From contig CAYHAA010000008.1 of the NCBI GenBank assembly GCA_964354495.1, positions 50,954 to 82,953 on the forward strand: a stretch of 32,000 bases of DNA, given 5' to 3'. A program made the position numbers and the translations under genes. Below the pieces are notes generated by a model that was not told the origin of the DNA, did no database searches, and saw nothing but the letters and a program-made list of their open reading frames with translations. Shown one piece after another: positions 1 to 15,372 of this stretch. The DNA comes from an uncultured archaeon (lineage in GTDB: Archaea > Asgardarchaeota > Thorarchaeia > Thorarchaeales > Thorarchaeaceae). Position 1 is the stretch's first letter, and the number at the start of each line of letters is the position of its first letter.

Positions 1-111
1 AACGCTTAAGAATTCATCTTCACGAGAGCTGAAGTTCATCAATCCATGCTTTGTGAGTTGGTTGCTTGATACTCAGCGACACTCATTCCTTCATGGGGGC
101 TAGACACTATA

Positions 112-1143
112 CTAAGTCGAATGGGACTGCCAGCCCTCCTTATCACGAAAGATGACTGATACAATTACCCACAATAGCCCAATCCCAGCGCATGCCAACA
201 GTACTGAAACAGCGATATCATTCAAGCCTCCGTTGCTGCCTGTGATTCCAGTGCTTCCATTATCTATTGGTGTTGTTGAAGTGCCTGTGCCTGAAAGGAG
301 AAGGTCGGACACTCTATAGAAGACAAGATTCATTGTTTGTGCAGCTTCTAGAATCGATACTAGTTTCTCCACCGGAGTACCATAGTCGGGAGAGCCATAT
401 ATAGGAGTGTGTCCATATAAAATAATGACCTCATCAGAGTCATGGGCTCGCTCCAGTCCTTGGATTATTTCATCAATTGTATTTCCATACTCACTATCAA
501 TCCCAACTCCGCGAATCAATGCTTCATTCTGCCACTTGTAGTAGACCGAATCCAAATCCACTATACGAGTTGTGTTTGATGTATATGCTGTTGACCTGAG
601 GCGTTGAAAATACTTGAGCAGTTCGGTATCAATTAAGGAGTTGCGAGAACCAAATGGATATGCAAAGGACTTTGGAGGGAGTTCATTCTCAGTCATGAGC
701 TCGATGGCTGGAGCAATTTCCTCATCAATGTAGACTTGGAGAGAGTTATTGCTAACAAACTCCACAGCATTCACATATCGGAGCCCTGATACTGCAACTT
801 CGTGTCCCGCATTCTTCATCACTCTGAGTTTTTCAAACTCGCTACTAGTCAAGTTATTAATGTTGCCAAGGAAAAAAGTTACCTTTGCACTATAGTTGCT
901 CAGTAGGCTCATGATACTATACCATTCATCTACTGCCCAGCCATTGAAAGTAATAGCAATTCCAGGCAGTCCTGGGGTGACCAGAGCAGTTGATCCATAA
1001 CAATCGAAAGGCACTCCCGAACAAGTTACGGACTGAGATGGAGAAACAACAATCCGGTCTTTACTCCCAAGAAGACCCATTGATATTGAGAGGATCAGGA
1101 AAAGAACCATGGCTCCAACAAGAGCATCCTTGTGCATCGACAT
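112..1143 (-). CDS. Membrane-anchored polysaccharide deacetylase (NodB/CE4)-fold protein, catalytic residues degenerate
   Basis: CE4 layout: AITF.., KVTFF, GHE, SFAYPFG, IILYGH. N-terminal hydrophobic helix, Ser/Thr/Gly linker and C-terminal TM helix. Motif 1 reads TFNG instead of TFDD and motif 2 reads SGLRY instead of HxxxH. Confidence 0.8.
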   Translation of the reverse strand: MSMHKDALVGAMVLFLILSISMGLLGSKDRIVVSPSQSVTCSGVPFDCYGSTALVTPGLPGIAITFNGWAVDEWYSIMSLLSNYSAKVTFFLGNINNLTSSEFEKLRVMKNAGHEVAVSGLRYVNAVEFVSNNSLQVYIDEEIAPAIELMTENELPPKSFAYPFGSRNSLIDTELLKYFQRLRSTAYTSNTTRIVDLDSVYYKWQNEALIRGVGIDSEYGNTIDEIIQGLERAHDSDEVIILYGHTPIYGSPDYGTPVEKLVSILEAAQTMNLVFYRVSDLLLSGTGTSTTPIDNGSTGITGSNGGLNDIAVSVLLACAGIGLLWVIVSVIFRDKEGWQSHST

Positions 1144-1367
1144 TTACTTCAGTCCATACCAATTTTGCAGATACACTTTGGGCGCCTTCGTATTTAATGA
1201 TTTGTCAGAAAACAGTCTGTTGGTATCCTAGTATGTCTTGATGCGGATGATCCACGTATATCCAATGGGATGCGAGCTCCGGATTTGTAATAGTAACACG
1301 ACATCTTTATCTATTCAAGCACTTAACGCAACCATTAGACCTATCGGAAAAAGGGGCACTTGACACG

Positions 1368-3422
1368 ATGGCAGTGTATACTCCCCTCGATCATCCAACC
1401 CGGAGGGGTACTATTCGGAAATCCATCATAACGAGAAAAGAGCTCATAGTACTTGTTTTGCTGAGTATAATGTTGAGAATACCCCGAGTTACTGGCATAA
1501 TTGGAGATGACGCGTTTGTTATTTTGTGGATGGGACGAATACTGAGTGAAGGGTATTTCGAGAACTATACTCTTTCTCCTTTTTCTCTATTAGGTCTCTA
1601 TCCCTTTGCTTCCTACCCCCTGGGCATTCCACTAGTAGTTGCCATCATGCTAAGACTAGGACTCTCTTTTGAGGTCATCGTTTCTGTGGTTTCAATAACT
1701 GCAGGAGTAGTTGGAACAGCGGGTGCGTACGTACTTGGAAGAGAGATCTGCGGGACCAATCAAAGACCCTTATTCTTCGCGACCTTCTATTCCTTCAGTT
1801 CTGTATTTGTTAATTTCACTTACTTCACGATTACTGCCAGAGGGTCATTCCTTGCAGTCCTACCTTGGTTCCTTTTCTATAGTGTCAGATTCATGAGGGG
1901 ACGAAATGTCAGATACTGGAAACTGACCGATGGTGGACTTATGCTCGTTCCTGCAGCAACGTTGAGGGATTTAGTAATTGCATCCATACTTCTTGCTGCA
2001 CTTTTTTTCATTCATGGGCTGGCCGTGTTCATTTCAATCTATATTGCTGTGTTTATTGGCTACTATATTATAAGAGAAATGCAGAACACTAGGATTGTAT
2101 GTTGGCTGACTAGAACCCTTGGCGATGTACGTCTTGCTATTTCTGCCAGTGGGTCTTCCACCATCTCAGATGGTAGACATTCCAGTTTCAGTACTTCTAC
2201 AGGTTTAGGGCAGAGAGTAAAGAAAAGAATACCCAGCGACTGGCCGTCATGGTTAATATATATCCTACTTCTCTGCGGAGCCCTTGTCCTCGGAATCATT
2301 TTCGTCCCCATAGATCCTTCAAAGACTGCTCCATTTCTCTTCTCAAATAGCACGCTCTTCGGTAGGAGCTGGAATCTGATAGTTGACTATGGGATTCTGC
2401 TCGGATTTCTGAGCTTATTCCTCCCAATTGGAATTCTTGGTGCTTTTCAGGAGGACAAAGGAAGTAACAGGAGATTGATACATGTCATTCTGGTTCCGCT
2501 GGTCTTGTTCATTCTGCCAATGAGCGTCTATACATCGGTACTCTTTCTCCCTGTTTTCGGATACTACTCAATTGTAGGATTTGATAAAGTCCGAACCTCC
2601 TTCAAGGATAGGTGGCTTGGCCTACTCTCCGTGGTTTTTGTGGCAGTCTATGTGACGATCTATATGCAGTTTGCAGCAATCCTACCACCCTGGTCACTCG
2701 GATTTGTGATGGCAACTATTGTCATTGCGCTTTTGGTTCCAATACTTGCTTTGCGAAGGTGGAGTATGTATCGCACTACCGTCGGGCATCAGTTAAGAAG
2801 GTGGAGAACGTCAGTTGGTCAAGGACCAGTGAATTTCCTTGATTTGCAAGGAATACGCGTATTCTTCATCTCAGTCATCATCATCTCACTGATAACTTCT
2901 GAGGGAATACTCCTCCAAGGCGACTTCAAGTATGTCACTAATGATGAACGCTTGATATACGAGTACCTCGGTGAACAGCCTAAACCAGGGATTATCTTCG
3001 TGCCAACACCGCCTCTGGGAAGACGATTGGAGGCTTATGGTTTTGAGGCGGTTCTCTCGTTTAACGGTGACGCCGCGCTCTACTTCGGATGGATTGAACC
3101 TTCCAACATAACAGCTAACTCCCGCATGAGTGTATCAAATCTCGTTCTGCGTGGACGGCTTTTTGTCTATGACGGACCAGATGTTGAGAGACAATTATGG
3201 ATTCAGCTCTTCAGTCTCGACCTGACCTCACCAGAAGGTCGAGAATCAGCAGTAGCACTCAGGTTGGAATATGTGATTGTCGAAAAGACTCCAACTGGTT
3301 ATAGTGATACATTCTACTCAATCTACGGGGACTACTACTCGCAGCTTCTCTATTCAACTCCTCTGGCATGTAATCGGGTTTTGGACGGAGAGAAGCTGAG
3401 TCTATTCCAGATTCCCTCTTGA
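1368..3422 (+). CDS. Multipass membrane protein, GT-C-like (ArnT/PMT-type) putative glycosyltransferase
   Basis: 684 aa with many TM helices. Acidic GDDAF motif directly after the first TM, YP.G.P loop, soluble C-terminal domain, glycosylation gene context. Confidence 0.6.
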   Translation: MAVYTPLDHPTRRGTIRKSIITRKELIVLVLLSIMLRIPRVTGIIGDDAFVILWMGRILSEGYFENYTLSPFSLLGLYPFASYPLGIPLVVAIMLRLGLSFEVIVSVVSITAGVVGTAGAYVLGREICGTNQRPLFFATFYSFSSVFVNFTYFTITARGSFLAVLPWFLFYSVRFMRGRNVRYWKLTDGGLMLVPAATLRDLVIASILLAALFFIHGLAVFISIYIAVFIGYYIIREMQNTRIVCWLTRTLGDVRLAISASGSSTISDGRHSSFSTSTGLGQRVKKRIPSDWPSWLIYILLLCGALVLGIIFVPIDPSKTAPFLFSNSTLFGRSWNLIVDYGILLGFLSLFLPIGILGAFQEDKGSNRRLIHVILVPLVLFILPMSVYTSVLFLPVFGYYSIVGFDKVRTSFKDRWLGLLSVVFVAVYVTIYMQFAAILPPWSLGFVMATIVIALLVPILALRRWSMYRTTVGHQLRRWRTSVGQGPVNFLDLQGIRVFFISVIIISLITSEGILLQGDFKYVTNDERLIYEYLGEQPKPGIIFVPTPPLGRRLEAYGFEAVLSFNGDAALYFGWIEPSNITANSRMSVSNLVLRGRLFVYDGPDVERQLWIQLFSLDLTSPEGRESAVALRLEYVIVEKTPTGYSDTFYSIYGDYYSQLLYSTPLACNRVLDGEKLSLFQIPS

Positions 3423-3463
3423 TGTCTACTAAGTAGAGATAGTGCTGATTGTCATTCTTCTGT

Positions 3464-4531
3464 CTACTGGTACTTTCTCTTTACCGAATCTAGCAGTTCC
3501 CTGAAAATGAACTCAACGACGTCAATTTTGCCAGAAAGGAATTTCCTGCTCCGCTCTCTGAACTGCTCATGCTGAGTCGCCATAATCTCATCTATGGCCC
3601 TTCGGATTTGGCCCTCCATCTTCTCTGATGGTATAATATGATAGAGTAGTCCAGCCGCCTCCTCGGCATCTATAGTACCTGCCATTTGCGTATTCAAGTA
3701 GATGGAGGGAGTACCCAGACATGCACACTCTGAGGCCATTGTGGCACCTTCTCCGACGTATGCTCTCGCATATGCAAGCATCGAATGCATATCCTCAGGC
3801 GCTATCGTCAATGTGTGATACTTAAGATCCGAGCTCACGCCTGATTCCATAGACAAGACAACCTTGCCATATTTCTGGAGATGCTGAACCAAACCAGGAA
3901 GGTCAGCAATCCCTCTCTGACCCCAATCATGAGTAGCTTTCCAAGATACAACTCGCACTACAAAAAAGGTGTCTTCCTCTGTGAGTCCATATTTAGAGAG
4001 GACTTTCACATCAGGCTTGAAATACTTGGGCGAGAGATACGCCATCTTCTGGGATCCATTGTAGCGTATGTGTTTCTTACCGAGGTTTCTTCGGAATACT
4101 TCTGGCGTGTAAACCATGCTAGAAAAGAACCTGATAACATACCCTTGAATGATACTCGCCTCGGTGTCGTCAAAGGTCATACATACTCTGTTTAGAATGC
4201 GAGCTACAGGGGCAGCATGGACAGAACCACAACTCAAGAAGGCATGGGGATTGAATTCCTGTGCTATTCTTAGTAACCTGTGGGTTGTCTTGACCAAGCT
4301 CATGGCTCTATCTAGGAGATTCGAGTATTGACCCACTATACGATAGCCAAACCCATAGGCATCAAGAAGGTCGGTGGCGACATCCTTCTTGCGAGTTGTT
4401 ATACAGACCTTACCTCCGAATTCTTCTATCCGCCATATGACGTGTTTCAGCACATGGACGTGTGCTGGATGGCCAATGTCGACAAGAACCCTAAGCGTCA
4501 TACTCTCATTCCTAGTTATCACTTGTTTCAT
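3464..4531 (-). CDS. DUF354-family GT-B glycosyltransferase-like protein
   Basis: Typical N-terminus VLVDIGHPAHVH, plus ATHD and YVGEGATMASECACLGTPSI. The start may be the ATG at 4501. Confidence 0.85.
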   Translation of the reverse strand: MKQVITRNESMTLRVLVDIGHPAHVHVLKHVIWRIEEFGGKVCITTRKKDVATDLLDAYGFGYRIVGQYSNLLDRAMSLVKTTHRLLRIAQEFNPHAFLSCGSVHAAPVARILNRVCMTFDDTEASIIQGYVIRFFSSMVYTPEVFRRNLGKKHIRYNGSQKMAYLSPKYFKPDVKVLSKYGLTEEDTFFVVRVVSWKATHDWGQRGIADLPGLVQHLQKYGKVVLSMESGVSSDLKYHTLTIAPEDMHSMLAYARAYVGEGATMASECACLGTPSIYLNTQMAGTIDAEEAAGLLYHIIPSEKMEGQIRRAIDEIMATQHEQFRERSRKFLSGKIDVVEFIFRELLDSVKRKYQ

Positions 4532-5153
4532 TCATAGGTCCGGATACCGGTTTCAGCCAATCTTCTCTCCAGAAACAGAAACAAGATCTATCACAATCTC
4601 CGTGGGCTTCCCCTGAGCAGAAAGCACCTTCGAGGAGAAACGTCGGCAATCGTATTCTTCGTAGTTCTCCAGTGGTTTCTAAGACTATCTTCTCAAGTTT
4701 CCTAAAGACCTTGAATCTTCGCCCACAATGCTGTTTCATCTCTTTCATGAAAGCTAACCCTCGAAGCTTTCCTTCCTCATCTAATGTGTTGAAGATTTCT
4801 TCGAATGACTTGACCTCGACCCAGTCCCCAGAACCTATTCTCAGTTCACTCTTGCCACTCCCACTACTGCCGTGTTTCGGTTCTTTCCCTCTAAGAGCTC
4901 TACTTGCTTTCGTTGGTAGAAGGGCGCTCGATTGGTAGTCTGATGGACCAAAGACTCCGAATCTCCATGCGTGCTTCGCCAGAGTGAACCATGGCTCATT
5001 AGAGCCCAACTTCTTAGACATGAATCGAAGAGGACCTAAGACTGCAGTGTGCCAAATCAGGCTTTTCAACTTCCGCCAGAAACTCAAGGTCGTATCTGGT
5101 CTTGAAATCCCCAACAAGTTATCGTAGACAAACTGACAGTGGCCTAATCCCAT
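4512..5153 (-). CDS. Conserved hypothetical protein with SH3-like segment and Cys-rich C-terminus
   Basis: GDWVEVKS..EI..TLD..G..RGL.F..EM..HCG..FKV and C..EAHGDCDRSCFCFWRE.WL pattern, which I recall from hypothetical proteins in polysaccharide loci. Overlaps the DUF354 ORF by 20 nt as called. Confidence 0.65.
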   Translation of the reverse strand: MGLGHCQFVYDNLLGISRPDTTLSFWRKLKSLIWHTAVLGPLRFMSKKLGSNEPWFTLAKHAWRFGVFGPSDYQSSALLPTKASRALRGKEPKHGSSGSGKSELRIGSGDWVEVKSFEEIFNTLDEEGKLRGLAFMKEMKQHCGRRFKVFRKLEKIVLETTGELRRIRLPTFLLEGAFCSGEAHGDCDRSCFCFWREDWLKPVSGPMNETSDN

Positions 5154-5581
5154 TTGATCGCCCTTGCCTTACACAGAACTGACACCTTAGAGGTATCCAT
5201 AACTCCTAAAATTGATTCTGGTTATCCAATTGTCAATTCTGAGACATAGTCCATTGACGAATATCGTATGTTCTTTGCTATATGCATATGTAGAAACACC
5301 CAAGGAAATGAAGCAGCTACAGGAAACTGAATGAACTTGAATGATTACCATAATGAGCAGTTACACGCAATACAGGAAAGAAACGGAAGAGCGCGTGCCT
5401 AACGTAGTCTTCCCTCATTGATTGCTAGGATGTGTTAAAGCATATCTTGGAGAGATTTGCTATGTCCATATGTAAACACCAATTGTCACTCCACCGAACA
5501 AAGGACATATCATTGGGCGTGCAATAGAGGCATCGAGAGATGGCAGGCTGAGCCAATACTGAATCTGGAGGGTATTGAATA

Positions 5582-6592
5582 ATGAACGAAACTGAGGCTC
5601 GAGAAACATCCGAACGACGTAGGCGCCTCAGAAGTGCACCTGTCCGATATGCATTTGAAGAGATGAAGTTTCTTAGGTCCTTCAAAGACCTGCGCAATTT
5701 TTATGAAAAGGTTAGGATTGTATTTCCGCGCGTCACCAGGACTTTTGATAGGTTTCACATGGCGCCACCTGTTCTGCAGATTGAGCCCACCAACTACTGC
5801 AATGCCAACTGCATTTGTTGTCCTACTGCCAGGAGTTCGAGAAAGAGAGGATACATGGACTCTGACCTGTTCTGCAAAATCATTGATGATGCTTCCATGA
5901 TTGGAGTGAGGGCTGTCTTCTTGTTCCTTCATGGCGAACCAATGCTTCACCCAGGGATAGTAGAGATGATACGCTACATCAAGCTGAAAGGACTGGCGTA
6001 TCATATGACAACTAATGGTGTTCCGTTTGACGAGAAGAAAATCAGGGGAATCCTTGGCTCTGGAACTAACAATGCAGATCACATATCATTTTCGATACTA
6101 GGAGCATCAAAAGAAGTTCATGAAAAGATAGTCAGGCCGGTGAGTCATGAGAAAGTAGTGGAGAATCTTCACATGCTTCTGAACATGAGGAAAAGCATGA
6201 GGGTAAATGGCCCTGTGATTGAAGTCATCTTTCACACGATGCCTGAGAACAGACATGAGGAGGATGAATTCATCAGGAAATGGCGAGGGGTTCTGGATCA
6301 TGTAAGGATGAGCGGTGATATATCACAGTCATTTTCAGAGTACAAGAGAGAGCGTCCATTTCCTGTGGTCAGAACCAGAAAATGCCTGAACCTCTGGCAG
6401 AAGATGACGATCCTCTGGAATGGGGACGTCACATTATGCTGCGAAGATGTGGATGGAGATTGGATTTTCGGTAACTTGAATGAACAGACAATCAGCGAAG
6501 TCTGGAACGACAAGAAGTTGTTGGCCATAAAGAGTATCCATAAGAAGAGGCAATTTGACAAGATTCCCTTTTGCTATTCATGTGACATGTGA
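5582..6592 (+). CDS. Radical SAM protein with C-terminal SPASM/Twitch Fe-S domain
   Basis: IEPTNYCNANCICC (CxxxCxxC), GEPMLHP, MTTNG, C-terminal CLNLWQ..I.WNGDVTLCCED..GNL..C..C. GGAGG RBS upstream. Confidence 0.93.
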   Translation: MNETEARETSERRRRLRSAPVRYAFEEMKFLRSFKDLRNFYEKVRIVFPRVTRTFDRFHMAPPVLQIEPTNYCNANCICCPTARSSRKRGYMDSDLFCKIIDDASMIGVRAVFLFLHGEPMLHPGIVEMIRYIKLKGLAYHMTTNGVPFDEKKIRGILGSGTNNADHISFSILGASKEVHEKIVRPVSHEKVVENLHMLLNMRKSMRVNGPVIEVIFHTMPENRHEEDEFIRKWRGVLDHVRMSGDISQSFSEYKRERPFPVVRTRKCLNLWQKMTILWNGDVTLCCEDVDGDWIFGNLNEQTISEVWNDKKLLAIKSIHKKRQFDKIPFCYSCDM

Positions 6593-6677
6593 TAGCAGGG
6601 GACAACACACCAAAGGTTGTTCTCGAGATGATGAGCCTGTTTCGGCAAACATACGTACAGATACTTTTTCTAATTCA

Positions 6678-7775
6678 TCATTGTGAGGCGTTACTAGCAG
6701 ATGAGCGGATTTGCTGCTTCTCTATTTCAGGAGTGAATTGTCTGACCCGTTTGACTGCTCTCCACACCTTATATCCTACTTGGGCAACAAGTGCTTTCAA
6801 CCGATTGTGTGTGCAAACTAGCCTTCCAAGCTCTATTTGATGGCCGCCCATGCTCTTCTTGAACTCCCTTACTCCGTACTCCTGCCCATGTCGCCCTGCT
6901 CCCCCGAAATCGAATAGTCTAAATCCATTTGCCACAGCCCATTCAATGGCAGACCAGAAGCTGTACTCCCCGATACCAAGATCAGAATGCTGCATATCAG
7001 CCGAGTTGTACCATAGATAGATGACTTCCTTGAATGTCAAGAAGACTCCGACACCCACCAACGCTCCTTGGAGTCTGACACCCACCAATCGTGCAAGACT
7101 CTTTTCTTGAAGTACTGTTATCACTGACTCAAAAAGCGACTTCGGCGGCATAGGGACTCTGATCCGTTCGTAGGTTTGCTTCACAAGAGAATACAAATCG
7201 TCAAGACTGTCAATTGTCACGACAACAGATGATAACTCTGATTTGAGAGCCTTCCGAATACCTCTCTGTCTGTTCTTGTGAAGGCCCTCCCATAGTCTGT
7301 CCATGCCGACTGTGAGATCAATATGGATGTTAAGATGGTCGATATACCCGTATCCAGCTGATTCAGCCAGATGGTTTATGTCTGCTCTTTGGGTGAGATT
7401 TCTGATTTCAGTGAAGACCGCTCTCTTACCAGCTTCCTTATTGTGCGCCTTGAGTATCTTTTCAACCAGAAAAGTTTTGTCGTTTCGATTTGAAATCAGA
7501 GGGCCGCCATACACCACTACCCTGCTTGAGAACCTGCTTGCTAATCGACCGGGTTCTTCAATGCGAACACCTAGCATCAGGGCGATAAGGTCTCCATTCT
7601 CATCTAGGATTGCTGTGAAAACCGGCACGTATCGTTCAGTAGTGAGATAGGCCCTATACATCTCTGGCGTCTGGAAAACGTTCCCGTCATCATTCTCTGT
7701 CACAAATCGACTCCATGCTAGCTCGTCTATCTCCCTAGGGTCGTGGACAATGCGATAGTTATCCTTGGGATTCAT
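6678..7775 (-). CDS. FemAB/FemX-like GNAT (tRNA-dependent aminoacyltransferase fold), paralog 1
   Basis: NVFQTPEM, YGGP, FTEIRN, RQRGIRKA, FDFGGAG, GVREFKKSMGG. Confidence 0.85.
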   Translation of the reverse strand: MNPKDNYRIVHDPREIDELAWSRFVTENDDGNVFQTPEMYRAYLTTERYVPVFTAILDENGDLIALMLGVRIEEPGRLASRFSSRVVVYGGPLISNRNDKTFLVEKILKAHNKEAGKRAVFTEIRNLTQRADINHLAESAGYGYIDHLNIHIDLTVGMDRLWEGLHKNRQRGIRKALKSELSSVVVTIDSLDDLYSLVKQTYERIRVPMPPKSLFESVITVLQEKSLARLVGVRLQGALVGVGVFLTFKEVIYLWYNSADMQHSDLGIGEYSFWSAIEWAVANGFRLFDFGGAGRHGQEYGVREFKKSMGGHQIELGRLVCTHNRLKALVAQVGYKVWRAVKRVRQFTPEIEKQQIRSSASNASQ

Positions 7776-7806
7776 AGGTGTTGCTCCAGGAACTTCCTTG
7801 TCAGTT

Positions 7807-8835
7807 TCAACGAATAGCCCTCCAGATTCTAAAGCCCAGAGTCGCCAATTTGTGTTTCAAATGGTTGTGCACACATTCGTATTTTCCAGTCTCTCGTGTC
7901 ATGCCACCCAAGCGTTCTTTGAAGACTCTCACTCCACTTTCTTCTTCTAGCGGACCACCGCCACCAAAGTCAAACAGTGTAAAGCCGTTTTCCGCTCCCC
8001 ATTCAAAGGTACTCCAAAACGCCAGTTCGTTGCAGTGGAATCGTGCGTACTCCATGCTTCCGGCGCAATACCAAGCATAGATTATGTCCTTGTACAACAA
8101 ATTCACGACTACTGCTACAAGCTTTTCTTCATGTTTGACTCCTACAAATCGTGCAAGACTCTTGCTCTGAAGAATGGACAAGACTGACTCGAAAAGCGAC
8201 TTGCGGGGGACGGGGAATGCAATCCGCTGATATGTTTCCTCGAATAGAGCGTAAAGATCGTCTAAGTCTTCCATAGACACAACACATGCTGTCAGACCTT
8301 CCTTCATAGCTTTTCTTATTTGTTGTCTTCTCTTTGAAGCAAGATTGTTCCAGAGCTGCTCAATTCCAGGGGTCAGGTCAAGATACGTGCTAGCATGAGG
8401 AATGAAGTTGTACCCTGCAGCTTCAAAAAAGGGATGTAGATCAGCTGACGGTGATAGGTTCCGCACTTCAGTGAACATTGCCTTACCATTCACATGCTTT
8501 GTATGTGCTCTCAATATCATCTCATGCAGAGCAGCTCTCCCATCTTCATCAGATACTATGGGCCCGCCAGCCACAAGAACTCTGCTAGAGAATCTTCTCA
8601 CGAATGATCCCATTTCCTCCTTGCGAGCTCCTAGCATCGTAGCAGCAATATCTCCGCTCTTGTCCAAGATAGCAGTGAAGACTGGTTCGTATCCCTCGGT
8701 ACTGAGATACACCTTGTACATCTCAGGAGCCTGGAAGATATTCCCTCTTGTGTTTGCTAACACGAAACTACTCCAAGCATCTTGATCCAGTTCGGTGGGT
8801 TCATGTACAATAGTAAATCCGCTTAAGGACTCCAC
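7807..8835 (-). CDS. FemAB/FemX-like GNAT, paralog 2
   Basis: GNIFQAPEM, GGP, FTEVRN, RRQQIRKA, FDFGGG, GVRVFKERLGG. GTG start with GGTGGTG RBS. Confidence 0.85.
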   Translation of the reverse strand: MESLSGFTIVHEPTELDQDAWSSFVLANTRGNIFQAPEMYKVYLSTEGYEPVFTAILDKSGDIAATMLGARKEEMGSFVRRFSSRVLVAGGPIVSDEDGRAALHEMILRAHTKHVNGKAMFTEVRNLSPSADLHPFFEAAGYNFIPHASTYLDLTPGIEQLWNNLASKRRQQIRKAMKEGLTACVVSMEDLDDLYALFEETYQRIAFPVPRKSLFESVLSILQSKSLARFVGVKHEEKLVAVVVNLLYKDIIYAWYCAGSMEYARFHCNELAFWSTFEWGAENGFTLFDFGGGGPLEEESGVRVFKERLGGMTRETGKYECVHNHLKHKLATLGFRIWRAIR

Positions 8836-9253
8836 TCGGTATTACACCACCTTGATTGGCGAAACTAGTCTAGAGCAACTTTGAAGCAATAATCTACTCC
8901 TTGTTAACGATGTTCAGACATGTGATAGGTTTACCTTCACCACGCCACAATGATTGATATCCTTGGTGCGATTTAAGCCTTCTCGGAAATGAGTCTGCAC
9001 TGTTGTTTTGCCATGAAGATGACTTATCAAAGCATTAGACTAGCTGCTCTGGATTTACGACAATCCTTTTGTATAGGAGCATGATGGCAAAGACATCCCG
9101 TGACTCTGCATACTGAAAATCAGCACCAGTACAAGAGGGGTAGAAATCGAGCTGTAAGGAGGCTCTCCAACCGAATCAGAATGTGGATGAAATCTGACTC
9201 AGAACTGCTGCAAAACCAGGTCACGGGTAGGTCAGGTAGCCGTAGGTGTTGCC

Positions 9254-10606
9254 TTGGTGTCGACAAAAGATAGGATCTGCTTAACCTCATCAGACTCAAG
9301 AAGCCAAACACATTCAGCTGTTGTGGGAGAGGAGATTCTAAACAACCTCGGAGTGGTTGATGGGATGAGTCATATCTCATACCCGAGCACTGGGGCTTGG
9401 AGAATCGACACTCTGTCCTTTCAAGAGAGTAGGATGACGAAACTGATTCTCAAACGACCCGAGACTTCTGTTTTTCCCATCTCTGCAAGATTCAGCAACG
9501 AACATCTAACAGGTGAAGCAATTTGCGAATTGTCAGATGGCACTCCAGCAATCACCCTTGAGGATCAGACACTCAAGTTCGGATTTGATCCCTTTGCAAT
9601 GTATATTGCATCTTTGCAAGAGGGATTTCGGAGTAGTAGGATTAGTGCGCTCAAGCAGTCAGCGCTCATGATATACTGGTATATGCCACCAGTTGTGAGG
9701 AGAGGAGTGAGCAAGTTTTCAAGGAGCCATGAAACATCTCATGTGCGCTGTCTGAAAGACATAGGTGTACTCGGAATATGCAACAATGTGATAGTGCACC
9801 TGATAGAGCAGCATATGCTTGAGATTGGATTGTTGAAAAGACACACAGAGTCCTCTTTTGCCGTTATCACGCATGATATTGACACAGATTTCTGTCAGAA
9901 AGAGGGCAGGGAGCTAATCGCATCAATAGAAGAGAAGGAGAATGTTAAGGCCACATGGTTTTTCGTCCCCAGGTCTGTTCAATATTCTTTGGATACAAGA
10001 GGAGTACAGTGTTTAACAGAAGAAGGACATGAGATTGGGATGCATGGCTATTCTCACAGTGGAAAACTTGCACTCTACAATGCCAAAAACCTTGCCAAGC
10101 AACTACGAAAGGGCAAGAGAATCTTGGAGTCTACTGGAGCCGATGTGCAGTCTTTCCGGAGCCCGTATACCCTACGGTCACCACTCCTCCTCCCGACATT
10201 GGTAGATGAGGGGTTCGAGATCGATTCAAGCTATATGGACGCGAAAACGTTTGGCGTGGCAGGTGGACTCAAGGGCTTGTCGTATAATAGACCCTTCAGG
10301 CCACCAAGTTATCAAAACAAATCACTCTCTAAGTTTCTACCACTCTGGGAAGTACCAATCGCATGCCCTCAAGATGTTCATCTCATAGAGAGCCTTAGGT
10401 TCACAAATGAGCAGGTGCTCAAGATGTGGAGCTATAAGGCAGACTTCTGTATGGATTTTGGAGGTGTTCTTGTCCTTTTGACTCATCCAGTTCACATAGT
10501 CAAGCGCATTGATGCCTTTGTTCAACTACTCAAGAACCTAAAAGCGAAGGGATTCCGAATCGTGCCTCTGAAGGACTTGCCGCATTCCACGGGGAAAGAG
10601 TGTTAA
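9254..10606 (+). CDS. Polysaccharide deacetylase (CE4/NodB) with N-terminal extension
   Basis: Intact motifs ITHDID, ATWFF, HEIGMHGYSH, FRSPY, DSS, LWEVP, LTHP. Start position uncertain (TTG). Confidence 0.85.
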   Translation: MVSTKDRICLTSSDSRSQTHSAVVGEEILNNLGVVDGMSHISYPSTGAWRIDTLSFQESRMTKLILKRPETSVFPISARFSNEHLTGEAICELSDGTPAITLEDQTLKFGFDPFAMYIASLQEGFRSSRISALKQSALMIYWYMPPVVRRGVSKFSRSHETSHVRCLKDIGVLGICNNVIVHLIEQHMLEIGLLKRHTESSFAVITHDIDTDFCQKEGRELIASIEEKENVKATWFFVPRSVQYSLDTRGVQCLTEEGHEIGMHGYSHSGKLALYNAKNLAKQLRKGKRILESTGADVQSFRSPYTLRSPLLLPTLVDEGFEIDSSYMDAKTFGVAGGLKGLSYNRPFRPPSYQNKSLSKFLPLWEVPIACPQDVHLIESLRFTNEQVLKMWSYKADFCMDFGGVLVLLTHPVHIVKRIDAFVQLLKNLKAKGFRIVPLKDLPHSTGKEC

Positions 10607-11097
10607 AAGAACCAGCAAGAAAAAAAGCAGAGCTCGTCGAATAACCAGTATGGAGTCAAATCAGGAGGTGTCTGAAATCACAACAAGCATCGCGTTCATA
10701 GGGATTGAGATACAGGATACTGACTCAATTGTGTGTTATTGGTACCGATTTTCTGACGAGACTGTCCTTCTTTGAGAAGTATCTTCTATCTTACTGTCTG
10801 ATTAGTGTGAAATTGATATCGATTTTCTGGAAAGTATGTCCCTATTTGAGAGAATCGTACAAATTAAGGGGCGGAGAATTTTCCTAGAACACTTTATTAT
10901 AGGTTACAGCTGCGTTCTCTGAGCCGGGTAACCTCGCAAATTGGAGAGAGATGCCCGCGGTATCGCACATATCGCGTGGAAGGGATGCGACTTACAGGAG
11001 AGACAGCGGCAGTCTAAGTGAGTGTGAGAGCTCACTAGTAATGGCACTGGTATTCGGCAATTCGCATCTCACGCGAATCACCAAGGTGATTCCTGAG

Positions 11098-12294
11098 ATG
11101 TACAAGGGAATGAGAGTAGCGGCTATAGTACCTGCACATAATGAGGAGCGTCTGATTGGACGGACAATCTGGCCCGTACCTGAAGTTGTAGATACAATAT
11201 ATGTCGTTGATGACGGCAGCAAAGATAGGACTGCAGAGATGGTCAGACATTATGCAAGCTTTGATTATAGAATCCGTCTGATACAGCATATTATCAATAG
11301 AGGCGTAGGAGCAGCCATCATCACAGGCTACCGTCATGCCTACGTGGACGGACATGATATATTCGTCGTTGTAGGCGGTGATGCACAGATGGACTGGCTC
11401 GATCTCGATAATCTGCTCAAACCCATAGCAGAAGGGAGGGCAGACTACACCAAGGGTAATCGTTTCATCTATGGGCATTCAAAGAACTCTCCAGGGAACG
11501 CATGGCGCGAGATGCCATCAAGAAGACTTCTTGGCAATATCACCCTCTCCGTCATGACGAAGCTTGCCTCAGGGTATTACCACATAAGCGACTCGCAGAT
11601 GGGTTACACGTCAATGCATAGACGTGTGTTCCCTCTTGTTGACTGGAGCAAAGCCCGCAAGGGCTACGGCTACCCAGCTGAGTGGCTAATGAGGTTCCAC
11701 TCACTGGGTGTACGTGTGCATGATGTCCCTGTTCGTGCGATATACTTACGTAATGAGAAACAGACTCAAATCCGTGTAAGACGATTCGTTTTCTACATGA
11801 TGGGCATCATTGTCAAAGGAGGCCTTGAACGCCTGAATCGAGAATATGTGTTTGGAAGGTGGCCTCTGCCAAAGATCTCGATGCCGATGATAGGCGTTCA
11901 GATTGGCAATCTCTTCAGACAGCTAAACCTTAGAATTGCAAGTATGAGAATCTTGAGCCGGTTCTCGGGATTGCTTAGTTTCAGACGAATATTCAGTAGA
12001 GCCCGATCGTTTCCAAAGGTGCTCTTGCAGACAGACAGGCTGAAGCTGGCGCTGGGTCCGAAACAGAACAAACATCCCCTCAACATATATGGTGGACAGG
12101 TCAAGAACACCCCCATCGACTTTAGTGTTGGGACGCAGGTCAACAAAATCCTAAGGGAGACATCTCGCATTGCCTTTGAGAGAGCTCCTTCAGGAGAACA
12201 GATGAGTAACTCAATCGAGAACCTCCGAACCAACTTTGAGAGAGTTGGCAAAACGATACGGGATCTGTTTTCGAAGACAGAAACAGCTAGCTAG
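11098..12294 (+). CDS. GT2 glycosyltransferase (polyprenol-phosphate sugar synthase-like) with long basic C-terminal tail
   Basis: IVPAHNEE, VVDDGSKD, NRGVGAA, GGDAQ (DxD region), KGNRF, DSQMGY, YGYP. Start moved to ATG 11098, which follows an AAGGTGA RBS. Confidence 0.9.
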   Translation: MYKGMRVAAIVPAHNEERLIGRTIWPVPEVVDTIYVVDDGSKDRTAEMVRHYASFDYRIRLIQHIINRGVGAAIITGYRHAYVDGHDIFVVVGGDAQMDWLDLDNLLKPIAEGRADYTKGNRFIYGHSKNSPGNAWREMPSRRLLGNITLSVMTKLASGYYHISDSQMGYTSMHRRVFPLVDWSKARKGYGYPAEWLMRFHSLGVRVHDVPVRAIYLRNEKQTQIRVRRFVFYMMGIIVKGGLERLNREYVFGRWPLPKISMPMIGVQIGNLFRQLNLRIASMRILSRFSGLLSFRRIFSRARSFPKVLLQTDRLKLALGPKQNKHPLNIYGGQVKNTPIDFSVGTQVNKILRETSRIAFERAPSGEQMSNSIENLRTNFERVGKTIRDLFSKTETAS

Positions 12295-12537
12295 ATTGTA
12301 TCCCTAGATCATATCCGCATTTGCTGCATTCTCCATCAACACTGGTAGCAGCATTCCTTGATGACAGTGCGTGCCACTCGTAACACAGAGCACCGCAGTT
12401 AGGGCACACAGTATCCTCAAGCCCTCTGACATCAGCATTGCCAACACATACGAACTGTAGTCCTAGGTGGAATGGTCGAAGAAGAATTAGGGATGTGCGA
12501 AGGCATTTGAGAAACTTACGCAGCTCAGGTCTACTGC

Positions 12538-13749
12538 CTAGTTCTTGCGGTCGAGGCTGAAGAAGAGGAGTAGTGGTACTATAAAGATCAGGACAGACGC
12601 CAATACGAACGCGAAGGTGTAGCTATGGCCACCAAAAGCCAAGAGTACACCGAGGACCAATGGTCCTGAGGAGTGTCCAACATCCATTATCGTACTGAGC
12701 AGACCCAGAGCAGATCCCTTCAATGATGAGTCTACCCTTTCGGTCACAAGCGGGGATGTTGTGGAATCGGTAGATGCAATCGCTAGCGCAATCGGGACCA
12801 CAAGAATGACCTGAAGCACGAAGTTGGTCACCGCAGAGGCTAGGGCAACTAGGATACAGAGACACCCCAGGCCACCCACAATGAATGGGAAGCGGCTGCT
12901 TCTATCGGAGGCTCGGCCTATGATGGGACCTGCTATCAGTATGGTGACTGTCAGGAGTGTGAACATCGGACCTGCAAACCACTCTGGAATGCCCACGACC
13001 TCATTCCAGAAGAGAGGCATGAAGAACTCGTACGCACCATAGAGAAAGTAGGTGGCAGCCTGCGCTGCACAGATGAGCAGGACATCGCGCCTGATGACTT
13101 CCCTCGTTGGTCTTCGAGTGACGGCCTTGCTAGAGATGCTCGTAGGCTCCGTGGCACCTCCCGTTCTTATCGGCAGTATTATGGTCAGTGCCAAGACAGT
13201 CATGCCGAATAGCCCACAGACTAGGTAGATACCTCGATAGACGTCGATTCCGAACGACTCAAACGCCGGCACGGCGAATAGGAATCCACCCAGAAGGGGT
13301 GCAAGAGTGCGACCAGCACGCGTAGACGAGGAGTAGAGAGCCATCCGTTCTCCACGTTGGTTTCCGAACCAACCTGCAACTAGTGCGAGCGCGACTGGAC
13401 CTAGTATAGCAGTAGCGGTCCCGTGAATGAAGCGGACAACAACAAGCTGCAGAGCAGTGGACACCCAGAAGTACAGGAAAGGCACAAACGCGAAGAGTCC
13501 GGCCGCCGCCCAGAGCAGCATCTTGGGACCCTTGCGGTCCATCAGAATCCCGATTGGAGCACTGACCAGTACGCCAGTGGCAGGCGACGCGGCCCCGATG
13601 AGGCCCAACTCTTCATCTGTGGCTCCAAGGGCAGATGCGAAATACGGAAGAACCGGAGACTTGGCCATTGTCGTACTGAATATAGCAAGCGCACCTAGAA
13701 TACAGAGTAGCAGCATCTTGCGTGCTACCTGAGGCGAGTCTGTGCTCAT
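12538..13749 (-). CDS. MFS transporter
   Basis: About 12 TM helices, motif A-like GILMDRKGPK and GRASDRSSR. ATGA overlap with the upstream ChrB-like gene. Confidence 0.93.
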   Translation of the reverse strand: MSTDSPQVARKMLLLCILGALAIFSTTMAKSPVLPYFASALGATDEELGLIGAASPATGVLVSAPIGILMDRKGPKMLLWAAAGLFAFVPFLYFWVSTALQLVVVRFIHGTATAILGPVALALVAGWFGNQRGERMALYSSSTRAGRTLAPLLGGFLFAVPAFESFGIDVYRGIYLVCGLFGMTVLALTIILPIRTGGATEPTSISSKAVTRRPTREVIRRDVLLICAAQAATYFLYGAYEFFMPLFWNEVVGIPEWFAGPMFTLLTVTILIAGPIIGRASDRSSRFPFIVGGLGCLCILVALASAVTNFVLQVILVVPIALAIASTDSTTSPLVTERVDSSLKGSALGLLSTIMDVGHSSGPLVLGVLLAFGGHSYTFAFVLASVLIFIVPLLLFFSLDRKN

Positions 13750-14288
13750 TTCATTGGTCCGGCCTTGATAGTACGAGGTAGTTGTTGTCTGAGTTGCGCG
13801 TGGAGCAGACGAAAGGCATCCTCGCGCGATTTCCCTTCAGTCTTGTCTTTCAGCTTTTGTCGGAGCGTCCTCAGCAGCAGGCCTGCATATATGGAGTCAC
13901 ATGTGATGAAGCCTCTTTCGAGTGCTTGGTAGTCATCGTCACTCGCGAAGGCAAGACCGCTGAGGGTAAGCTCAACTCCCCGAGCCTCTGGCGTCTTGTC
14001 AATGTCTTTCTCGACATCAGCTCCGTGAATTATTGCAGCCATCTCCGAAAGAATGGGATCTTGCAGACCATAGTGATCAATCAGCACCTCGAATGTACAC
14101 TTTCCCTCGTGGTGGGTGAAAGGGATATCCATATCGGGAAAGTCGAAAGGAGTGCCATCACCAGCATTCAGAGCAGTCCCAGGCCAGACTACGAACTTGA
14201 ACTCCGCCTTTGGGTCGATGAAGCGACGAATGAGCCAAGGGCAGGCCACACGATCCACATGGACATGAGCACGCGTCACCCATTTCAT
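13746..14288 (-). CDS. Chromate-resistance ChrB C-terminal-domain (ChrF-like) protein
   Basis: MKWVTR..VHVDRVACPWLIRRFIDP.AEF, FD, H..GKCTFEVL, IIHGAD, PEA.G. Start set at the MKWVTR ATG. Confidence 0.88.
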   Translation of the reverse strand: MKWVTRAHVHVDRVACPWLIRRFIDPKAEFKFVVWPGTALNAGDGTPFDFPDMDIPFTHHEGKCTFEVLIDHYGLQDPILSEMAAIIHGADVEKDIDKTPEARGVELTLSGLAFASDDDYQALERGFITCDSIYAGLLLRTLRQKLKDKTEGKSREDAFRLLHAQLRQQLPRTIKAGPMK

Positions 14289-14346
14289 TTTGTTCACAAT
14301 GCCGCCAACGACACGGACACTCATAAATTCAACGGGCCTGATTGGT

Positions 14347-15318
14347 CTACCTGACAGCTGATTCGTCAATCGTTATCTGTTTCTTAGTCGCGTCGAGGGT
14401 GGCCTTGCAGCCAATTGGCAAGACATAATTCTCCACGTAGTGACCGAGCTCACCTATCTCAAGAACTGGGAAATCATAATCCCTAGTTTCCTCGAGAAAG
14501 GCATCACTGACTGGGCGACCTAGCTCTTTCTCCTCAAGTTCGCTGCCCTCAAACCATCCAAGGATTACACCTGCGACTTGGTCAAATACCCCATGCAGCC
14601 TGAGAGCTGCTACGAAGCTGTTTGTGTGTCCCACATTGTCAGTTCCCTCGAGAAAGAGAACTGCGCCCTTGAAGTCGGGGCCGTAACCAGCCAGTATTGC
14701 ATTGGCAAGAATCCTGATATGCCCTCCTACGAGTCGCCCTGTGCTTTTTCCTTTTCGAAGGCATCTCCACCCAGGGTATTTGATGTCTGGCCTCAACTGG
14801 TGCTGCCAGTCTTGATTCGGTCGTAGTTCTATAGGCTTTCCATCGAAGAAGGTGCTCTTGATGTTCTTCTCGATCTGAGGGGACATTTTCTGACCGAAGG
14901 TATAGATGAGGTCTGGACCGTGAAACGTCACGAGACCGGTTCTAGCGTGGACTGCATTCAGCAAAACAGTCCCATCGGAGATCCCTGAGAATATCTTGGG
15001 ATTGTCTCGAAGCAAGTCATAGTCGATGCCATCCAGAAGTTGGTTGGCTGTATTCCCTCCCTGTGCCATCAACACCCACCTCACCTCGGGGTCTGCCCAG
15101 AGAGTGTGCAGGTCCTGCAGCCTCTCCTTGCGAGTACCGGAGCTGTAATAGTACTGACCAAGCGTGTGCTCTGCGATTTTGACATTGAGTCCAAGTGACT
15201 TGAGTTTCTCTACACCTAAGTCGAACTTCTCACGCGTGTCCTGTGTGACGGGCCATGAGGGAGAGAACACTCCAACAGAGTCGCCTGCCTGCAGTTTCGG
15301 GGGCTTGATGAGATCCAT
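14347..15318 (-). CDS. S66 family peptidase (LD-carboxypeptidase/MccF-like)
   Basis: PPKLQAGD.VGVFSPS, GGNTA, NPKIFSGISD (Ser nucleophile), HGP, LFLE (Glu), GH (His). Confidence 0.92.
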   Translation of the reverse strand: MDLIKPPKLQAGDSVGVFSPSWPVTQDTREKFDLGVEKLKSLGLNVKIAEHTLGQYYYSSGTRKERLQDLHTLWADPEVRWVLMAQGGNTANQLLDGIDYDLLRDNPKIFSGISDGTVLLNAVHARTGLVTFHGPDLIYTFGQKMSPQIEKNIKSTFFDGKPIELRPNQDWQHQLRPDIKYPGWRCLRKGKSTGRLVGGHIRILANAILAGYGPDFKGAVLFLEGTDNVGHTNSFVAALRLHGVFDQVAGVILGWFEGSELEEKELGRPVSDAFLEETRDYDFPVLEIGELGHYVENYVLPIGCKATLDATKKQITIDESAVR

Positions 15319-15372
15319 GTGATTCCCTCCGACTTTCGATAGGCTGCTAATGGCTGTCCCTTCTACGTTGGG

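Follow-up and report, generated by a model that had tools for sequence, protein, structure and literature searches.

Can an archaeon that has no peptidoglycan decorate a glycan of its surface with amino acids taken from aminoacyl-tRNA? The question is raised by a cluster of glycan genes at positions 112-12294 of a 32,000-nucleotide stretch of DNA from an uncultured Thorarchaeota (Asgard) archaeon, the whole of which we call the window (G000:C8:50954-82953; G, C and L denote genomes, contigs and loci). An earlier note on this DNA, made from the letters alone, had proposed that a CE4 deacetylase unmasks a sugar amine, which two FemAB/FemX-like enzymes (Fem-likes) then aminoacylate from tRNA. Our computational analysis supports this reading, and nothing that we found overturned it: judged from sequence and from a structural model, we put at roughly 0.55 the probability that a sugar amine exposed by the CE4 on a lipid carrier is aminoacylated in a tRNA-dependent manner, and the surface glycan of the host is probably decorated with amino acids. 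The components that the note had listed were all found as intact open reading frames in 112-12294, in agreement with the domain searches.

The Fem-like pair

Fem-like 1 (342 aa, 7807..8835, minus strand) and Fem-like 2 (365 aa, 6678..7775, minus strand) are paralogues with 49% identity, and their genes lie 31 nt apart. Both exceeded the cut-off of 24 bits of Pfam FemAB (PF02388), with 49.8 and 28.8 bits respectively, and the match to Acetyltransf_6 (PF13480) was stronger for both (3e-21 and 2e-16). TIGR03019 was the best NCBIfam match of Fem-like 1 (1.7e-21) and Fem-like 2 (3e-15), over almost the full length of the model.

When the profile of the 32-member family was searched against the PDB, only aminoacyl-tRNA-dependent enzymes were retrieved: S. 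aureus FemX (4e-18), Weissella FemX (3e-12), the tRNA-dependent peptide synthase Sbb17 (1.6e-9), and FemA; there was no acyl-CoA GNAT at E <0.01. The AlphaFold2 (AF2) model of Fem-like 1 (predicted local distance difference test, pLDDT, 92.3) is a compact tandem (double) GNAT. Its structural matches were FemX, Sbb17/Sba18, and FemA at ranks 1-11 (E ~1e-18, template modelling score, TM-score, 0.64-0.72), MprF-type aminoacyl-phosphatidylglycerol synthases at ranks 12-25, and acyl-CoA tandem GNATs from rank 26 (E ~5e-11, TM-score ~0.55). Sbb17 reached a TM-score of 0.71 by query and 0.83 by target, and Sbb17/Sba18 were crystallised with streptothrisamine, an amino-sugar intermediate. In HMMER alignments the F-K of both Fem-likes fell on residues 304-305 of Weissella FemX, whose catalytic Lys is K305 (PMC12945691); the corresponding K306 was invariant in the 32 family members, and position 305 was F/Y in 31/32. 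Moreover, the GNAT CoA-pyrophosphate motif (R/Q-x-x-G-x-G/A) was present in neither Fem-like and was not conserved in the family.

It is at the donor that a first alternative enters: the pathway would be the same, but the Fem-likes would re-acylate the amine from acyl-CoA, acyl-ACP, or an acyl-adenylate made by a CapK/PaaK-like enzyme, yielding an unusual N-acyl sugar in place of an N-aminoacyl one. Annotations of PF13480 proteins as CelD/BcsL acetyltransferases are widespread, a CapK/PaaK-like adenylate-forming enzyme accompanies the locus type of Thorarchaeota (Thor-type), and the acyl-CoA tandem GNATs remain significant structural matches; in addition, the part of the HfsK report that treats its donor allows for any acyl donor (PMC5362036). 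Against this stand the lead of the aminoacyl-tRNA enzymes over the acyl-CoA GNATs by ~7 orders of magnitude in E-value and ~0.15 in TM-score, the absence of the latter from the profile search, the invariant FemX catalytic Lys, and the missing CoA motif, and we regard a non-tRNA donor as unlikely. The comparison between FemX and acyl-CoA GNATs that the earlier note had suggested thus came out on the FemX side, and sequence and model together support placing the Fem-likes in the aminoacyl-tRNA-dependent class, with the donor itself as a prediction. They are predicted to be Fem-type in their mode of action but are not peptidoglycan Fem enzymes, because the genome is archaeal and has no Mur ligase domain, so that a peptidoglycan precursor is not the acceptor.

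The two CE4 proteins

The cluster had been described as holding a single intact CE4. The intact protein was confirmed (CE4 #2; 450 aa, 9254..10606, plus strand, PF01522 4e-10), but a second, dead and membrane-anchored CE4 (CE4 #1; 112..1143, minus strand, PF01522 8e-8) had been overlooked. In CE4 #2, HGYSH fell on the two metal-binding His residues of CE4s with known structure, H. pylori PgdA among them, and H264, H268, R302, P304, and H411 (HGYSH, RSPY, and a late His) were invariant in 9 Fem-partnered CE4s. Its putative motif 1 (T-H-D-I-D, 204-209) reads T-H-D-(I/V)-(D/E) in close relatives, with D-(I/V)-E in L033 and L035. The protein also has a conserved N-terminal domain of ~200 aa with no assigned role and a weak match to TIGR03006 (34 bits vs a cut-off of 276). 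On the strength of the motifs, we propose that CE4 #2 unmasks the sugar amine. Neither CE4 #2 nor the Fem-likes have a transmembrane (TM) segment or signal sequence, and all three are predicted to be cytoplasmic, which fits chemistry on the side of the membrane where aminoacyl-tRNA is available.

Aligned to the chitin deacetylase 2y8u, CE4 #1 has TFNG for TFDD and SGLRY for HxxxH, the catalytic/metal Asp-Asp and His-His being lost and the fold retained. CE4 #1 is bounded by two TM helices (7-25 and 314-332), the C-terminal one of which follows a Ser/Thr/Gly-rich linker, and it weakly touches the HfsH model of NCBIfam; its gene adjoins that of a GT-C also in L010/L053. Its residues and topology suggest that CE4 #1 is probably a surface-displayed, catalytically inactive pseudo-deacetylase, perhaps a glycan binder that binds the product outside the cell.

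We also noted that the CE4 partners at L017 8677-9996 and L014 6304-7587 had no motif-1 Asp pair near the N-terminus and carried a C-terminal S/T-G-D-I-D that resembles a displaced motif 1; circular permutation or truncation of a second domain might account for it.

Glycosyltransferases and a proposed lipid-carrier route

The GT2 (10951..12294, plus strand, PF00535 5e-22) may be of the polyprenyl-phosphate sugar synthase type. Its best NCBIfam matches were PpgS (6e-18), AglJ (3.5e-12), and a dolichol phosphate (Dol-P) hexose transferase, and its sole PDB sequence match was P. furiosus Dol-P-Man synthase (2.4e-9). From these matches, we propose that it loads N-acetylhexosamine onto Dol-P. There was no priming phosphoglycosyltransferase in the locus, and the only PF00953 gene of the genome is on contig C21.

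The GT-C (P0001; 684 aa, 1368..3422, plus strand) is an STT3/AglB-like paralogue with a GT-C membrane domain of ~12 TM helices and a C-terminal globular domain, and it resembles oligosaccharyltransferase (OST), ArnT, and protein mannosyltransferase (PMT). It lacks WWDYG: no WWD-like string was found in P0001 or 16 relatives, and there was no match to Pfam STT3 (PF02516). The role that we propose for this protein is to hand over the modified glycan from its lipid carrier to an acceptor outside the cell. The DUF354 protein (3464..4531, minus strand, PF04007 1e-14), which we take to be a GT-B-type glycosyltransferase, had no sequence match in the PDB at E <=1; its homologues (38-39% identity) adjoin Fem-like genes in L015 and L032.

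Recurrence of the gene set

The Fem-like family profile matched 20 of 301 sampled Asgard genomes, in 13 of 70 genera, and only 3 of the 24 other genomes of the same genus; its patchy distribution marks the family as an accessory trait. The Fem-like had a CE4 #2 homologue beside it in G000, G191, G290, G211, G259, G053, and G178, and one gene off in G009 (8/20). The gene-neighbourhood comparison called for in the earlier note therefore gave a positive answer, with CE4 and Fem-like together in these 8 of the 20 Fem-positive Asgard genomes and also in metagenomic loci. CE4 adjoins the Fem-like in L010, L011, L017, L032, L033, L034, L035, L041, and L053 and is 1-3 genes away in L043 and L014; of all the links, this adjacency persists best from lineage to lineage.

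The proposed lipid-carrier enzymes recur with the pair. Three independent contexts (the window, L033, and L035) have a GT2 like this one immediately adjacent to the CE4 and Fem-like genes, and a GT-C gene accompanies those for the GT2 and the deacetylase in the window, L010, L053, L011, and L034, and independently in L033. A gene for the CapK/PaaK-like enzyme goes with the Thor-type locus: it was found upstream of the window as well as in L011, L034, and L053. The most compact arrangement was observed in the closed 4.9-Mb Asgard genome G259 (L033), a run at 9454-14664 of Fem-like, CE4, GT2 (~4 TM), and PMT_2-family GT-C. Its Fem-like passed the TIGR03019 cut-off (312.9 bits), the adjoining CE4 was closest to TIGR03006, and its GT-C was identified through Pfam PMT_2 (PF13231 1.7e-14); hhalign of the window GT-C family profile against the multi-TM proteins of L033 and L032 (789 aa in the latter) gave no significant similarity.

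Outside the Asgard sample, Fem-likes of 30-35% identity were located beside CE4s of ~430 aa in Wzy-type or GT4-rich clusters (L014, L017). The clearly archaeal L015 (S-layer protein, archaeosortase) had a Fem-like followed by DUF354, GT2, and a homologue of the window GT-C. A DegT aminotransferase or GFO/IDH/MocA dehydrogenase flanks the Fem-likes in L014, L017, L040, and L043, and loci with no adjacent deacetylase often hold this other route to a sugar amine (GFO/IDH/MocA plus DegT).

These neighbourhoods bear on a second alternative, in which the Fem-likes are aminoacyl-tRNA-dependent but act on something other than a lipid-linked CE4-exposed amine (a nucleotide-sugar amine, an amino acid that is CapK-linked to a uronic acid to form a short peptide stem, or a protein or peptide), and the GT-C is the polymerase/ligase of a Wzx/Wzy-type repeat-unit pathway. 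Weissella FemX acts on a nucleotide precursor and not on a lipid, according to the part of the study that concerns its substrate (PMC2175331). Two extra GT-B enzymes and a Wzx are present in our locus, as in repeat-unit pathways, Wzy-type Fem-like loci exist (L017: Wzy_C, Bac_transf), and some Fem-likes adjoin an aminotransferase, not a deacetylase. However, the persistence of the CE4-Fem adjacency, the run in G259, which has neither Wzy nor a priming transferase, and the resemblance of the GT-C to OST, ArnT, and PMT all count against a different acceptor, which we consider quite unlikely.

Separately, in another Asgard genome (L044, G195:C68, 7935-10473), a distant Fem-like (profile E 1e-17) adjoins a Mur-type ligase with matches to Mur_ligase_M (8e-38) and to the C domain, and a proteasome-subunit-like gene is nearby.

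Radical SAM enzyme and Cys-rich protein family

The radical S-adenosylmethionine (SAM) enzyme (5582..6592, plus strand) matched PF04055 (6.5e-17) and PF13186 (1e-15), both above cut-offs. It has CX3CX2C (CNANCICC at residue 73), Cys at 268, 286, 287, 331, and 334, and one auxiliary-cluster domain of the Twitch/SPASM type. The PDB matches were BtrN (1e-10, residues 278-335, the auxiliary-cluster domain only), PqqE (4e-5), and BlsE (1.7e-4), of which BtrN and BlsE act on sugars or aminocyclitols. Copies with 59-91% identity adjoin Fem pairs in the Thor-type loci L010, L011, and L034 and in L032 of G211, and we propose that the enzyme tailors the sugar or the amino acid. B12-binding radical SAMs, another class than the Thor-type Twitch/SPASM enzyme, adjoin Fem-likes at L033 7909-9366 and L039 1855-3276; radical SAM chemistry of differing classes recurs beside Fem-likes.

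The Cys/His-rich protein P0002 (213 aa, 4512..5153, minus strand) has no Pfam or NCBIfam match, and its gene overlaps that of DUF354 by 20 nt. Its family comprises 137 relatives with no Pfam domain, in which C6, C143, C179, H184, C187, and C191 are strictly conserved and C193 almost strictly, with the motif C-D-R-x-C-F-C-F-W-R-E; the protein probably binds metal or Fe-S. In two archaeal-looking clusters the relatives directly follow a PIG-L deacetylase and a BshC-like gene, and in a bacterial cluster a fused form is found by a GT2, a CE4, and an Acetyltransf_6 protein (P0002-family loci: L036 6001-6585, L037 6001-6561, and L038 6001-7050). In bacillithiol synthesis, BshC is the candidate for the enzyme that adds cysteine. 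One possible role for P0002 is that of a general accessory wherever a module first deacetylates a sugar and then attaches an amino acid. The idea that it is a specific partner or substrate of the radical SAM enzyme was weakened, as P0002 occurs elsewhere without that enzyme.

Host genome and extent of the locus

The source metagenome-assembled genome (MAG) is 3.3 Mb in 51 contigs and 97.7% complete, and the contig that carries the cluster is 122 kb. Bacterial and archaeal searches of the genome for small subunit (SSU) rRNA found none, and the domain was therefore assigned from TBP, with three genes of which two are in tandem (G000:C2:13543-14681 and C2:207051-207494), and from AglB/STT3, with one gene on contig C3, away from the cluster. 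McrA had no match in the genome, and a methanogen was rejected on this ground. The absence of mur genes, noted earlier for the window, extends to the entire genome, which had zero matches to Mur_ligase_M. The host is a Thorarchaeota (Asgard) archaeon, not a methanogen and not a bacterium, and is without peptidoglycan or pseudomurein ligases; the bacterial contig with peptidoglycan genes against which the earlier note had cautioned is not what we found. A contaminant contig of bacterial origin, or wall genes of the peptidoglycan or pseudomurein type, could be suspected from homologues named 'lipid II:glycine glycyltransferase' at the Joint Genome Institute (JGI) and from an S66 LD-carboxypeptidase at 14347-15318, but is effectively refuted by the length of the contig in a genome with TBP and AglB, by the same locus at about 90% identity in another Thorarchaeota MAG, and by the lack of Mur_ligase_M and McrA.

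The closest public relative of the locus is in Ca. Thorarchaeota MAG OWC2, with the full gene set in the same order and 83-93% protein identity. The GC content of the locus is 0.453-0.456 against a genome mean of 0.478 (standard deviation 0.016), with 8.7% of 12-kb windows equal or lower; it is not an outlier, and its low GC does not speak for recent transfer. No tRNA genes were found within the window, and the 14 tRNAs that ARAGORN detected in the MAG are too incomplete a set for finding dedicated isoacceptors. The sequencing runs listed with this DNA were wetland and sediment metagenomes with small shares and included no RNA run; they have no bearing on expression or habitat.

The genes at 112-12294 were confirmed as members of the cluster, but it begins farther upstream than had been thought: it extends ~4.2 kb beyond the start of the window, with genes for the CapK/PaaK-like adenylate-forming enzyme, a Wzx-type flippase, and a GT4. 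Beyond these, two giant secreted proteins are encoded, which are candidate acceptors. In L019 (C8:31000-50953), the first (72-8258, plus strand) has >2728 aa and a faint DUF7738 match, and the second (10126-15075, minus strand) has 1649 aa with BNR_4 and DUF2341. The latter ends in PHGF, a TM helix, and RRRR, an archaeosortase-like signal, yet archaeosortase was undetected in the genome in a search of low sensitivity. A protein of ~490 aa whose gene adjoins that of a giant (L019 8353-9825, minus strand) is kept at 57% identity beside the 70%-identical cluster in L011.

Directly 3' of the glycan cluster (window 12538-16665) are genes for MFS, ChrB_C, an S66 LD-carboxypeptidase-like protein, and MFS, in a genome without peptidoglycan, and the GC content climbs from ~0.46 to ~0.52 at the border between the two groups.

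Proposed pathway

The probable type of the GT2, the contexts in which GT2, CE4, and Fem-like are neighbours, the run in G259, the lack of a priming transferase, the presence of Wzx, and the predicted cytoplasmic location of the enzymes suggested an order for the pathway, each step of which we infer from folds, motifs, and gene linkage. First, the DPMS (Dol-P-Man synthase)/PpgS/AglJ-like GT2 would put N-acetylhexosamine on Dol-P at the cytoplasmic face, and second, the cytoplasmic CE4 #2 would strip the N-acetyl group. Third, the two FemX-like paralogues would acylate the freed amine from aminoacyl-tRNA, either in succession (amino acids 1 and 2) or as alternatives, on the cytoplasmic side, just as FemXAB act on lipid II. 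Fourth, DUF354, the upstream GT4, the Twitch radical SAM, the Cys-rich protein, and the CapK-like enzyme might extend or tailor the unit. Fifth, Wzx would move it across the membrane, and sixth, the WWDYG-less STT3-like GT-C would pass it to an extracellular acceptor, either the neighbouring giant secreted proteins or another glycan. By analogy, the pathway would follow the logic of ArnC/ArnD/ArnT (NaxD, PpgS) with a Fem step added. Further, we think the chances slightly better than even that the locus is a self-contained accessory pathway of Dol-P-based surface glycosylation that is independent of AglB.

Several points weigh against the tRNA-dependent aminoacylation of a lipid-linked sugar amine. 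The TIGR03019 scores of the Fem-likes (76.7 and 56.1 bits) are far from the curated cut-off of 260.35, and the NCBIfam matches of the GT2 to Dol-P sugar synthases are likewise all below curated cut-offs; no clear C-terminal TM helices were found in the window GT2. The motif-1 Asp pair of CE4 #2 (THDID) was read by eye and is out of register with distant relatives in the multiple alignment. Among the other Fem-positive Asgard loci, some have no nearby deacetylase, although most of these are contig ends or distant matches. Finally, a donor has been identified for no EPS (exopolysaccharide)-associated Fem-like (TIGR03019, HfsK), and Sprecher et al. leave it open in the section on HfsK (PMC5362036).

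A bolder version would have a surface modification so far described from no organism, an Asgard Dol-P-hexosamine with an aminoacyl stem of one or two residues, which the STT3-like GT-C delivers to giant surface proteins or a wall polysaccharide and whose amine serves as a cross-link or anchor point, with the P0002 family generally assisting modules that aminoacylate sugar amines, be they Fem-like or BshC-like. Such cross-linking could be analogous to the cross-bridges of peptidoglycan and the N-glycyl-glucosamine bridges of Halococcus. We hold this combination to be unlikely.

Comparison with known systems

The deacetylase-FemAB pair has been annotated as a signature of bacterial EPS loci since 2006. 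CE4-FemAB pairing is the curated signature of bacterial XrtA/PEP-CTERM EPS loci (TIGR03006 plus TIGR03019), for which an example of gene order is available (PMC3684757). These loci share with our cluster an adjacent CE4 and FemX-like double GNAT in a polysaccharide cluster, and the likeness extends to GT4s, Asn-synthase-like or adenylating enzymes, and Wzx. However, the Fem-likes and CE4 #2 of the window are far below the TIGR03019/TIGR03006 cut-offs, and the window differs in its archaeal dolichol-based setting, STT3-like GT-C, Twitch radical SAM, tandem Fem-likes, and CE4 N-terminal domain. No exosortase/archaeosortase (PF09721) was found in the genome by a search of doubtful sensitivity, which matched only 1/4 archaeal controls. 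The G211 cluster has Asn-synthase-like and Wzx-like genes (L032 16449-18359), a make-up that matches bacterial PEP-CTERM EPS loci with several Asn synthase genes (PMC3684757). In the literature searched, we came across no account of what the bacterial TIGR03019/TIGR03006 pair does biochemically.

The holdfast of Caulobacter crescentus offers a parallel in that cytosolic HfsH and then the FemX-like HfsK were proposed to act on lipid-linked EPS precursors, HfsK acylating amines exposed by HfsH with an acyl donor that Sprecher et al. left open, and in 2017 the deacetylase-Fem pair was linked genetically to holdfast cohesion, as set out in the portion of the article on these two proteins (PMC5362036). 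Unlike the window enzymes, HfsK is described there as being under cyclic di-GMP control through a C-terminal extension and as part of a bacterial Wzx/Wzy pathway, and the same portion mentions neither GT-C nor radical SAM for HfsH/HfsK (PMC5362036).

The peptidoglycan enzymes FemX/FemA/FemB/MurM share with the Fem-likes the tandem GNAT fold, the aromatic-Lys motif, and FemAB matches above cut-off, and Fem paralogues that add residues in turn, as outlined in the relevant section of a published account (PMC6428869), are a model for the tandem pair. Compared with S. aureus FemX/FemA, Fem-like 1 has no FemA coiled-coil arm, is shorter (342 aa vs 420-426 aa), and is only 12-18% identical, and those enzymes serve peptidoglycan, whereas the Thorarchaeota genome has no peptidoglycan precursor pathway. 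The direct biochemical precedent for Fem-type acylation of a sugar amine is Orf11, homologous to Sbb17 and Sba18, which according to a brief statement puts glycine from Gly-tRNA onto the amine of the amino-sugar intermediate streptothrisamine (PMC12945691, citing Maruyama 2016). Orf11/Sbb17/Sba18 belong to a streptothricin-type (BD-12) antibiotic pathway of Streptomyces with no lipid carrier, while the window holds a surface-glycan locus.

With respect to carrier chemistry, the resemblance is to systems that combine a GT2, a deacetylase, and a GT-C to deliver a free amino sugar: ArnC/ArnD/ArnT, FlmF2/NaxD/FlmK, and PpgS/Rv3779, in which ArnD and NaxD deacetylate lipid-linked sugars. The locus differs from them in the two inserted Fem-likes, with which the sugar would arrive N-aminoacylated, in the extra glycosyltransferases, and in a Wzx in place of a small flippase. 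As in Dol-P N-glycosylation of the Haloferax type, the GT2 is similar to AglJ, and the GT-C to STT3/AglB, whose C-terminal globular domain it shares, but the GT-C family lacks WWDYG and a Pfam STT3 match, and the canonical AglB is on C3.

With respect to the product, N-glycyl-glucosamine bridges are recorded, in a summary of older work, for the wall heteropolysaccharide of Halococcus morrhuae (PMC4187196, citing Steber and Schleifer 1979). This compound, known chemically only, has an amino acid amide-linked to the N of glucosamine and is the exact product type predicted here. We know of no enzymes assigned to it. The Thr of methanogen N-glycans is an amide on a sugar carboxyl, which is other chemistry than that proposed here, and Halococcus N-glycyl-glucosamine and Orf11/Sbb17 are better precedents than the methanogen glycans to which the earlier note had pointed.

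The logic of deacetylating and then acylating is thus already in the literature for bacteria (HfsH/HfsK; TIGR03019/TIGR03006), and the literature searched held no biochemical proof of deacetylase-Fem chemistry in any organism. What is new here is the Asgard setting, the tandem Fem pair, the AglJ/DPMS-like GT2 with the WWDYG-less STT3-like GT-C, the Twitch radical SAM, and the P0002 family.

Significance

Asgard archaea are the closest prokaryotic relatives of eukaryotes, and almost nothing is known of their surface chemistry. The locus yields a testable prediction for it, an N-aminoacyl hexosamine on dolichol phosphate that would be moved by an STT3 paralogue, and the compact Fem-CE4-GT2-GT-C run of the closed Asgard genome is a minimal system for reconstituting the chemistry. 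It also bears on the cross-domain question of the deacetylase and FemAB pair, for which we found no report of donor or product. If the proposed pathway is true, the use of aminoacyl-tRNA outside translation would reach archaeal glycans, and an enzymology would be suggested for the long-known N-glycyl-glucosamine of Halococcus walls.

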